Positions 15,867-17,743 are shown, counted from the first letter of the stretch. The stretch: 17,743 bases of DNA from Candidatus Micrarchaeota archaeon (GCA_013331805.1 DUFS01000083.1:3268-21010), one strand, 5' to 3'. Numbers and translations are program-made. Notes: a model not told the origin generated them from the letters alone.

Positions 15867-17189
15867 TCAGTCCTTGCCCACTGCCTGCTCCACTATTTTG
15901 ATCGATTCGCCGATGTAGCTTTTCGGGTCGAACAGCAGGGCAAGCTCTCCCTTTTTGATGAATTTCAGGACATCCTTGTTGGAGGAGAGCACGTCGAGCA
16001 TTTTTTTCTTGCTGCTGAAGGATTCCATTGCGCAGTTACGCATAAGCTCGTGCGCCTGCTGGCGGCCCATGCCCTTTTCGGTGAGCGCAATCATTATCCT
16101 CTCGGCCATCACCGCGCCGCCAGTTAGCTCCAGGTTCCTTGCGATGTTTTCAGGATAGAACTGCAGGCCCTCAAGGATCTTGTTCATTTCCAAAAGCATG
16201 TAGTCCGTCACAATGAACCCCTGGGTGAATATGAAGCGCTCGTTTGCCGAATTCGATAGGTCGCGTTCGTGCTCCAGGGGGATGTTCTCGAGTGCGACCG
16301 CAACGTTGGCGCGCACCAGCCTTGCAAGCGAGCAGACCCGCTCGCTCTTGTGGGGGTTCCTCTTTTGCGGCATGGTGGAGGAGCCCACCTGCTTGCTTCC
16401 AAATGGCTCTGAGATTTCCATTATTTCGGTCCGCTGCAGGTTGCGGATTTCCTTGGCGATTTTCTCAAGTGTCGCTGCAATCAGCGCAAGGGTGAAAAGG
16501 GCCTGAGCGTGCCTGTCGCGCTGCACCACCTGGTTGGTGACCTGCGCAGCCTTGATGCCAAGCTCCTGCATGACAAGGGACTGGATTTTCGAGCCCTTGC
16601 CCCGGAAGGTGGCCATGGTGCCTGCTGCCCCAGACATCTTGCCAACCGAAATCATCTGCTCTGCCTGGTCCAGCCTCTCCATGTGGCGGCCCATTTCGGA
16701 AAACCAGAGCGCGAACTTCATGCCATAAGTGGTGGGGACCGCGTGCTGGCCGTGCGTCCTTGCTATGCAGACCAAATTCTTGCGCTCAATTGCATGCCTT
16801 TTCAGCAGGGCCCTTGTTGCAAGCAGCCTTTTTCTTATGATCCCGATTGCCCGCTTGAGCGTGAGCGCTGTTGCGGTGTCCTCTATGTCATAAGAGGTGG
16901 CGCCGAAGTGAACAAAGCCCCCGTATTTTTCGCACTTTTCCGAAAGCGCCCTCACCATTGCCATCAGGTCGTGGTGTATTTCGGCCTCGATTTCTTCCAC
17001 GCGGGCAAGCTCCACTTTTTGCGCTGCCTGGCTTATTTCTTCAGCTGCCTGGGAAGGAATGTTCTTGAGCTTGGCATGAGCATTGGCAAGCGCCACTTCC
17101 ACCTCAAGCCAGGACGCAAGCTTCGCCCCCTCCTCAAAAAGCGCGTTCATCTCGGTTTTGTACCTTGAGTCTATCGGAGACACAACCAT
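15867..17189 (-). CDS. purB: Adenylosuccinate lyase
   Basis: SPIDSRY, HFGATSYDI, ARTHGQHA and GSSTMPQKRNP; true start MVVSP at 17189 after a GGGTGG RBS. Confidence 0.97.
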   Translation of the reverse strand: MVVSPIDSRYKTEMNALFEEGAKLASWLEVEVALANAHAKLKNIPSQAAEEISQAAQKVELARVEEIEAEIHHDLMAMVRALSEKCEKYGGFVHFGATSYDIEDTATALTLKRAIGIIRKRLLATRALLKRHAIERKNLVCIARTHGQHAVPTTYGMKFALWFSEMGRHMERLDQAEQMISVGKMSGAAGTMATFRGKGSKIQSLVMQELGIKAAQVTNQVVQRDRHAQALFTLALIAATLEKIAKEIRNLQRTEIMEISEPFGSKQVGSSTMPQKRNPHKSERVCSLARLVRANVAVALENIPLEHERDLSNSANERFIFTQGFIVTDYMLLEMNKILEGLQFYPENIARNLELTGGAVMAERIMIALTEKGMGRQQAHELMRNCAMESFSSKKKMLDVLSSNKDVLKFIKKGELALLFDPKSYIGESIKIVEQAVGKD

Positions 17190-17204
17190 GGGAATCCACC
17201 CTAA

Positions 17205-17256
17205 TGCGGGGAAGTCCTTGGGCTGAACCCAATAACTCAACATCCAGCCCCCCGCA
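17205..17256 (-). promoter_or_regulatory. Structured 5' leader of the purB-folate operon (candidate cis-regulatory RNA)
   Basis: Outer stem TGCGGGG/CCCCGCA encloses GGCTGGA/TTCAGCC, with an alternative TTGGG/CCCAA pairing; it lies between the TATA box and the RBS. Confidence 0.45.
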
Positions 17257-17278
17257 CATGAATTATGTCATCAGGAGA

Positions 17279-17286
17279 ATTTAAAT
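17279..17286 (-). promoter_or_regulatory. TATA box (ATTTAAAT) for the purB operon
   Basis: Purine-rich BRE-like GGTAAGAAC upstream; predicts a start site near 17255-17260. Confidence 0.5.
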
Positions 17287-17334
17287 GTTCTTACCCGTCA
17301 GGTGAAAAAATTCGAAAAAAAGTGCTGATCCAGG

Positions 17335-17528
17335 AAATGCGATTCCTGTCCCCTCATTTTTTCTGAAGAAAAAATGCGGATGCACATTCCTGCGGGAATG
17401 AATCCGGCATTTATTCAAGAATAAATGCGGATGCCGGGACGACAAACTGCGCAGCAGTTTGGCGGCTTTTTCCGCAGCAGCGGAAAATAGGCAGCCGCAT
17501 TGAGCGAAGCGAAATGCGGATGCCGGGA
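17335..17528 (-). repeat. Decaying direct repeats of the tRNA-Gly 3' end separated by palindromic spacers
   Basis: Plus strand AAATGCGGATGCCGGGA at 17512-17528 (the tRNA itself) and 17423-17439, AAATGCGGATGC at 17372-17383, AAATGCG at 17335-17341. Confidence 0.8.
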
Positions 17529-17743
17529 TTTTCACCAAGAGAACACCACCATTTTCTTTTGGGGTGGAGCCCTCAGCCCTTTTCTTTTCGGAAAAGAAAG
17601 GGGATATGGGTTTGAACCCGGACCATTGACTTTCTTTTAGACCTTTTCCCGCTTTTCCGTGGACGCTTTTTCGAGCGTACCCATCTGGAGCGAGAAAAAG
17701 GGTCCTTGGAAGGCCAAGATACTAGCCAGGTTATACTACATCC
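17515..17743 (-). tRNA. trnG: tRNA-Gly(TCC) with two introns: 37/38 (17632-17706, 75 nt) and 59/60 (17529-17610, 82 nt); first 2 nt (predicted GC) lie beyond the window; CCA not encoded
   Basis: Spliced: (GC)GGATG TA GTATAACCTGGCTAGTAT C TTGGC CT TCC A|A GTCAA TGGT CCGGG TTCAAA|T CCCGG CATCCGC A. Acceptor, anticodon and T stems all pair, and intron 2 has a perfect BHB. Confidence 0.9.

Follow-up and report, generated by a model that had tools for sequence, protein, structure and literature searches.

A predicted two-intron tRNA-Gly(UCC) gene at a contig end of a Micrarchaeota archaeon, and the hairpin cassettes and tRNA tail copies behind it

The window analysed here, the whole stretch of 17,743 nt taken from the host assembly, corresponds to C56:3268-21010, and its end is also the end of the contig. 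At this end, on the minus strand, lie three exons and two introns of a tRNA-Gly(UCC) gene, followed by a series of tRNA tail copies separated by hairpin-rich spacers (Table 1). The host genome (1.19 Mb, 52.9% G+C, 83 contigs, 91.5% complete) is, by sequence, that of an Anstonellaceae-like Micrarchaeota archaeon; the close homologues of its splicing endonuclease EndA are labelled Candidatus Anstonellaceae, Micrarchaeia and Micrarchaeota.

Table 1. Features of the tRNA-Gly(UCC) locus (window coordinates) and loci with comparable end copies (contig coordinates)
Feature	Coordinates	Strand	Description
Exon 1	17707..17743	-	37 nt, tRNA positions 3-37
Intron 1	17632..17706	-	75 nt, canonical position 37/38, relaxed BHB
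Exon 2	17611..17631	-	21 nt, tRNA positions 38-59
Intron 2	17529..17610	-	82 nt, T-loop position 59/60, strict hBHBh'
Exon 3	17515..17528	-	14 nt, tRNA positions 60-73
Type B two-hairpin cassette, non-coding	17440..17514	-	75 nt, directly 3' of the tRNA
Second exon 3 copy, exact (positions 60-73)	17426..17439	-	no BHB-competent context upstream
Two-hairpin spacer	17384-17425	-	42 nt, between second and third tail copies
Third tail copy (positions 65-73), then T6	17375..17383	-	9 nt
Fourth tail copy	17323-17331	-	degenerate
Tail-copy loci in host genome	C13:1-260, C46:8866-8962, C55:9819-9940, C36:17988-18166, C60:8184-8290, C71, C44		
5'-end copies at tRNA-Ser	C37:16936-17009, C32:31748-31821 (host); L062 (G012)		

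Exon 1 carries the 5' strand of the acceptor stem without its first two nucleotides, the D arm, the 5' strand of the anticodon stem, UCC and A37. Exon 2 supplies the 3' strand of the anticodon stem, a 4-nt variable loop, the 5' strand of the T stem and the T loop up to A59, and exon 3 supplies U60, the 3' strands of the T and acceptor stems and the discriminator A73. CCA is not encoded, A73 being followed by TTT. When the exons were joined by script, ARAGORN reported a normal 74-nt tRNA-Gly(tcc), and the result was the same with GC, NN or no prefix. In the spliced tRNA the acceptor stem has 7 bp and the D stem 4 bp, the anticodon UCC lies in a 7-nt loop (CUUCCAA) with U33 and a purine at 37, and a class I variable loop of 4 nt is followed by the T arm CCGGG-UUCAAAU-CCCGG and discriminator A. 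The sequence-only reading had proposed just this three-exon gene (17515..17743, introns at 37/38 and 59/60), and it held in ARAGORN after splicing, in the blind scan and among the orthologues described below.

The cloverleaf is complete except for two nucleotides at the 5' end, because the contig stops there; tRNA positions 1-2 and the promoter lie beyond it (17744-45 are not on the contig), and the pre-tRNA would measure at least 231 nt. In all 21 genus orthologues these two positions read GC, before GGA(T/C)G. Glycine identity of the archaeal/eukaryal type is set in the acceptor end by C2:G71, G3:C70 and A73. G3:C70, G71 and A73 are present in the gene, the partners at positions 1-2 being off the contig.

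The unspliced window yielded no tRNA with ARAGORN and no Rfam match at the gathering score. With introns allowed, ARAGORN found 19 tRNAs in the host genome, including Gly(ccc) and a doubtful Gly(gcc), and no Gly(tcc), in line with the earlier suggestion that standard callers might miss the gene.

The exon-intron junctions of both introns lie in bulge-helix-bulge (BHB) motifs. At intron 2, the outer helix is the T stem itself (CCGGG/CCCGG, C49-G53 with C61-G65), and the central helix pairs U54-A57 (UUCA) with UGAA in four of four Watson-Crick pairs. With the bulges A58 A59^C and AA^U60 and an inner helix CCA/UGG, this is a strict 3-4-3 BHB, the textbook motif that had been read from the sequence. 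For its part, intron 1 was described from the start as having only a relaxed motif, and this was borne out: in its central helix, CUUC/AAAG, three of the four pairs form (C32-U34 with AAG) and C35 stands opposite A, leaving the host helix one base off the common GAAG. The bulges are C36 A37^A and AA^A38, and the inner helix GGACC/GGUCU is shifted by one extra A. Because of the flanking A's, the junction of intron 1 can equally be written 36/37 or 38/39.

A blind scan for BHB motifs was run on both strands of the whole 1.19-Mb genome. The motif had to contain 4 bp in its central helix, two bulges of 3 nt, 3 bp or more in the inner helix and 4 bp or more in the outer one, and introns of 10-320 nt were admitted. 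The scan returned 18,582 strict candidates, and the products of cutting them out were passed to ARAGORN with its own anticodon-intron option. Only seven gave a tRNA across the junction. Four were shifted versions of one tRNA-Ser intron on contig C14, and one was exactly the 82-nt intron 2, to which ARAGORN itself added the 75-nt intron in the anticodon loop. Since the scan was ignorant of the first proposal, the structure was recovered independently of it. The minimum-energy fold given by RNAfold recovered neither BHB; it favoured a 3-bp UUC/GAA register for intron 1 and contained no intron 2 BHB at all. Such a failure is usual, because BHBs are not minimum-energy structures.

The locus was then compared among relatives. 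A locus query matched 31 of 41 related genomes, the host genome included, and 21 of the genus's 22 other genomes yielded the tRNA-Gly(UCC) locus. Twenty of these loci were complete, that of G016 running off its contig; in G007, a 75% complete genome, there was no exon-1 match. The comparison set thus consisted of 21 complete loci, 20 from relatives plus the host gene. Over the first 30 nt of exon 1, the 21 genus genomes showed zero or one difference, and the 74-nt exon sets of the complete loci varied at only 7 columns. One of the changes was compensatory, pair 6:67 being T-A in 15 loci, C-G in 4 and T-G in 2.

The introns behaved differently from the exons. Intron 1 was present in 16 of the 21 complete loci, with lengths of 20-126 nt, and absent from 5; intron 2 was present in 15, with lengths of 29-225 nt, and absent from 6. 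Ten loci carried both introns and none lacked both. The alleles without an intron read exactly as the predicted spliced junctions, ...CCTTCCA-AGTCAA... and ...GGGTTCAAA-TCCCGG..., and the exon boundaries are settled because these intron-lacking orthologues carry the spliced sequence. The central BHB helix was perfect in 11 of the 16 intron-1 alleles and in 10 of the 15 intron-2 alleles. The Rfam tRNA model scored 45-52 bits (gathering score 29) in five of six tested orthologues with an anticodon-loop intron only, and gave no match for the allele with a T-loop intron only. The longest T-loop introns measured 225 nt in G009 (L033) and 221 nt in G004 (L034), and that of G009 contains an internal tandem duplication of a hairpin module. 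In a soil-metagenome contig of run X6, positions 17535-17610 were swapped for 122 other letters between the same exons; the replacement sets in precisely where exon 2 ends and spares the final 6 bases of the intron. Judged by its sequence, this variant is a strain with a different intron 2, that is, a case of intron replacement between strains.

Because an exact second copy of exon 3 lies downstream, sequence alone cannot prove which copy is used. The mature tRNA might take the copy at 17426-17439, in which case the first copy would fall within an intron 2 of about 171 nt. Both 14-nt copies have the same sequence, and the long T run that resembles a terminator (T6) follows the last good tail copy and not the first. 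However, UGG-UGAA-AA, the sequence that completes the BHB with the T loop, stands in front of the first copy only; in front of the second stands ...UUUGUCG, where the strict scan found no BHB. Moreover, 18 of the 20 complete loci of relatives lack the cassette and keep the same exon 3 context, and the downstream copy has decayed in G015 and G005. We consider use of the downstream copy very unlikely and retain the three-exon gene with the 82-nt intron 2.

The gene could also be a decaying pseudogene full of insertions, GGA being decoded by another gene outside the assembly. Such a gene might have escaped, the genome being 91.5% complete in 83 contigs, and the tRNA gene is cut by the contig end and surrounded by repeat debris. 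This reading is at odds with the near-invariant exons and the compensatory pair change in 21 species-level genomes, with the fact that in each genome nothing but this locus matches the exon-3 14-mer or exon 1, and with the BHB geometry, which is kept in both introns. Within the 91.5%-complete host genome neither ARAGORN with introns nor BLAST with the exons found any other tRNA-Gly(UCC). Exon 1 matched only C56 and the CCC isoacceptor. At -ps90, ARAGORN returned 301 calls, mostly spurious; an intronless 'Gly(tcc)' at C45:1960-2049 was rejected for its poor fold, and BLAST showed none of six further low-threshold tcc calls to be like the conserved exons. Decay of the gene is about as improbable as use of the downstream copy, and a functional gene remains the preferred reading.

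The assembly of the locus was supported by other data. The tRNA stretch of the window occurs in groundwater and soil metagenome runs, and Logan contigs matched it without differences in X1 (17464-17743), X5 (17300-17678) and X6 (17479-17672 and 17680-17743); one X1 contig reaches 19 nt past the window end, and X1 is possibly the sample from which the genome came. A chance cloverleaf or a chimera assembled from repeated intron-like sequences is hardly credible: repeats of the intron families do lie on many contigs and probably break assemblies, but contigs of three other runs match without differences, only 7 of the 18,582 BHB candidates yield a tRNA, and the orthologous structure is found in 21 genomes. 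Taken together, the locus very probably holds a functional tRNA-Gly(UCC) gene of a Micrarchaeota archaeon with two BHB introns, without its first two bases at the contig end.

In RNA data, the wetland metatranscriptome run X20 contained only partial, unspliced-looking pieces from relatives, over 17642-17743, one of which passes from intron 1 into exon 1. The contigs of this one RNA run held no spliced, junction-spanning or circular-intron RNA, contigs being unable to show absence. In the four runs whose contigs were compared with the stretch, the sole joint was the DNA strain variant of X6. One X20 contig matches exon 1 exactly (17712-17743), stops at tRNA position 32 directly against adapter and carries 114 nt of upstream sequence; it may come from a fragment of a relative's pre-tRNA with its leader, or from DNA carry-over.

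The sequence-only reading held that such a gene would need a broad-specificity splicing endonuclease, and the enzyme genes of the host fit that expectation. A single EndA locus was found, on C69. Its open reading frame in the genome copy (P0001, 290 aa) is interrupted by NN (L009:1733-1734). The database protein P0002 (396 aa) is 100% identical to it over 282 comparable residues and ends with the same last 18 residues as the frame after NN; the NN stands for about 0.3 kb encoding a third (βC) unit present in P0002. A second NN mark occurs in the genome copy on C68, around 1020. Residues 4-396 of P0002 align with residues 4-387 of the ARMAN-2 enzyme 4FZ2 (395 aa; PMC3488258; E value, 1.2e-129), while α'2, α4 and (αβ)2 structures match its catalytic part only, with E values of 1e-22 or weaker. 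According to the alignment, P0002 is a single polypeptide of three units (αN-α-βC), as in the ε2-type endonuclease. Counted on the same alignment, K160 of P0002, in GSYK, lies opposite K161 of ARMAN-2, in GTYK, which we take to be the conserved lysine of the ARMAN-specific loop. Passages of Kaneta et al. 2018 (PMC5829648) state that the ARMAN-type loop with this conserved lysine gives broad specificity and that non-canonical introns are removed only by the (αβ)2 and ε2 types. According to Fujishima et al. 2011 (PMC3239211), the ARMAN-2 ε2 enzyme cleaves in vitro both a strict BHB at 37/38 and a relaxed one at 59/60, and the tRNAs of ARMAN-2 have introns at many positions, including two in one T loop. 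The sequence data therefore support the presence of a broad-specificity ε2 endonuclease in the host.

The ligase RtcB is also present in the host genome. Its matches on C72:27-2753 (minus strand) form two pieces, covering profile positions 1-50 and 44-426 and lying about 1.4 kb apart, both inside one 960-aa open frame; this split suggests a large in-frame insertion such as an intein.

We infer splicing from the architecture of the gene, the BHB pairings, the conservation of the exons against the turnover of the introns, and the enzyme genes. In the pathway proposed, the homodimeric ε2 endonuclease would cut both 3-nt bulges of each BHB, the strict one at 59/60 and the relaxed one at 37/38. RtcB would join the three exons and probably circularise the introns, RNase P and RNase Z would trim the ends, and CCA would be added post-transcriptionally.

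Both introns had relatives in other tRNA genes of the host. Intron 1 was 94% identical over 51 nt to a sequence on C62, located (by eye) in a tRNA D region at a contig end, and 91% identical over 53 nt to one on C14, located in tRNA-Ser(tga) at 37/38; weaker matches occurred on C46 and C68. Intron 2 matched a sequence on C37 (91% over 58 nt), again in tRNA-Ser(tga) at 37/38, another on C11 (90%) in the T loop of tRNA-Leu(gag), and a third on C83 (88%) in the T loop of a two-intron tRNA, and its 3' part partially matched a T-loop intron on C50. Members of both intron families were also found in most genomes of the genus and beyond it, in other families of the same order, with, for example, 20 matches in G039; BLAST of the G039 copies of the intron 2 family gave 3 alignments, in 2 of 16 fetched loci. 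A single-deletion scan with ARAGORN at 10 intron-family loci returned either 832-1015 alternative solutions or none. From their similarity, both introns are members of repeat families that have been copied between tRNA genes of the lineage, sometimes to other positions.

The closest known system is that of ARMAN-2 (Candidatus Micrarchaeum acidiphilum), which belongs to the same phylum and has the same three-unit endonuclease architecture. Its tRNAs, as PMC3239211 describes them, are likewise interrupted at 37/38 and 59/60, with motifs of both the strict hBHBh' and the relaxed kind, and a single tRNA can carry more than one intron. Examples of such disrupted tRNAs are pre-tRNA-Cys (59/60) and pre-tRNA-Pro (53/54 and 59/60). 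The introns reported here are longer (75 and 82 nt) than the 13-25 nt of the assayed ARMAN-2 substrates mentioned in that source (PMC3239211). The present case also differs in concerning Gly-UCC and, going by homologue names and run labels, an Anstonellaceae-like lineage of neutral groundwater. Here the introns belong to multi-copy families, and cleavage is predicted, whereas it was assayed in ARMAN-2. The gene thus adds one more case to the disrupted tRNA genes that have been known in ARMAN-type archaea since 2011.

In Thermoproteales, too, tRNAs with multiple introns and the transposition of introns are said to have been described, by Sugahara in 2008 and Fujishima in 2010. The likeness lies in near-identical introns in different tRNA genes and positions, rapid gain and loss between close relatives, and dependence on a broad-specificity EndA, all of them features that Thermoproteales reportedly show. 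However, the enzyme is (αβ)2 there and ε2 here, the superphylum is different, and the intron families here recur across an order, in which 31 of 41 genomes match the locus query.

The region behind the gene was not unique in its layout. The exact exon 3 copy, starting 75 nt downstream of the gene, is followed by the shorter and the degenerate copies, and the spacers between tail copies are pairs of hairpins. A tRNA followed by a cassette and a copy of its own tail was also found at seven or more other host loci (His, Gln, Asn, Trp, Met and the tRNA 3' parts on C36 and C60), and the layout recurs in relatives (loci L052-L066). Two types of cassette were distinguished. Type A ends in GCTCCA and stands behind tRNA-Gln, tRNA-His and the C36 tRNA in the host; in relatives it follows tRNA-His, -Asp, -Ser and -Thr (ARAGORN) and tRNA-Asn and -Gln (by eye). 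Type B ends in GTCG and stands behind tRNA-Gly in the host and G015, and behind the C36 and C60 tRNAs; in the type B cassette of the window, the 5' part holds an inverted tRNA tail copy (plus strand, 17490-17501). Every cassette leads into the tail of its own host tRNA, which begins at position 60 or close to it. On the right, the cassettes always end at or near this position, at the junction of T loop and T stem, while the left edge of the duplicated segment lies 0 to about 16 nt into the trailer. At five other tail-copy loci the strict scan likewise found no BHB that would splice between tail copies. Because copies decay, as in G015 and G005, the tail copies look like scars rather than functional exons. 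Mirror-image copies of the 5' end were found upstream of tRNA-Ser genes: positions 1-14 recur there as an exact copy of 14-15 nt, at a distance of 59-61 nt from the gene and with a hairpin between.

Two known arrangements resemble this one, the distal repeats of E. coli tyrT/tyrV (RtT, RF00391) and the att-site duplications made by tRNA-targeting integrases. In both, as here, the last 9-14 nt of a tRNA are copied behind the gene, with short, hairpin-rich non-coding DNA between. Rfam gave no RtT match at the tail-copy region, in contrast to the first. As for the second, a large integrated element or an att scar was rejected after a 14-mer search of 23 genomes, in which extra matches occurred only in G004 (a contig-end overlap) and G020 (a coding-region chance match); there is no integrated element, and of the 22 other genus genomes, 20 have a single copy of the exon 3 14-mer, one has none and one has the chance match. 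One site-specific att core is also unfit to explain the layout, because the same cassette families stand behind different tRNAs and carry each host tRNA's own tail.

Other candidate sources for the cassettes were considered. A casposon origin of the duplications of about 14 bp was rejected, no Cas1 being found in the host genome. The genome contains three IS200/IS605-type fragments of Y1 transposase, at C56:3022-3243 (just upstream of the window), C28 and C42, one reverse transcriptase ORF (a 403-aa frame, C79:540-1151) and two tyrosine recombinases. Nothing links any of these to the cassettes, nor the Y1 fragments or the reverse transcriptase to the introns. Compared with the T-loop introns of G013, G019 and G022 (72-76 nt), the type B cassette showed only 41-50% identity around one shared motif, a level at which homology is not established. 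At a permissive threshold, Rfam gave only sub-threshold noise over 17100-17743; the best hit of apparent relevance, RF04247 (Hac1/Xbp1 intron) on the plus strand across the type B cassette, scored 22.2 bits where the gathering score is 41 and was treated as chance. We met no paper on tail-copy cassettes, in literature searching that was not aimed at them, and do not claim that they are unpublished.

It is conceivable, though on present evidence rather unlikely, that a single insertion process targeting tRNA genes, with a hot spot at 59/60, gives rise both to the T-loop and anticodon-loop introns and to the hairpin cassettes. Inserts that happened to complete a BHB would survive as introns, and other inserts would be tolerated only where positions 60-73 had been duplicated and an intact gene remained. 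The 13-14-nt tail copies would then record, at the DNA level, the arrival of archaeal tRNA introns, and how these introns arrive is a question that a 2026 preprint (10.64898/2026.10.13.758758) calls still open.

For the organism, no second tRNA gene for GGA codons could be recognised in the genome, GGA making up 44 of the 240 GGN codons in seven long ORFs of the window, and this one was missed by ARAGORN and Rfam. Because callers miss intron-split genes (19 tRNAs at 91.5% completeness), tRNA counts used as a measure of genome quality are too low for such genomes. The gene itself adds little to the 2011 ARMAN-2 picture. What is added is the proof of the exon boundaries by comparison, the turnover of introns inside one genus, the typing of the enzyme, a record of the tail-copy cassettes and the shared intron families. 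In general, the comparison of 21 genomes shows that, within one genus, introns at two fixed sites are gained, lost and replaced very fast, and the genus is therefore well suited as a natural system for studying the spread of BHB introns.
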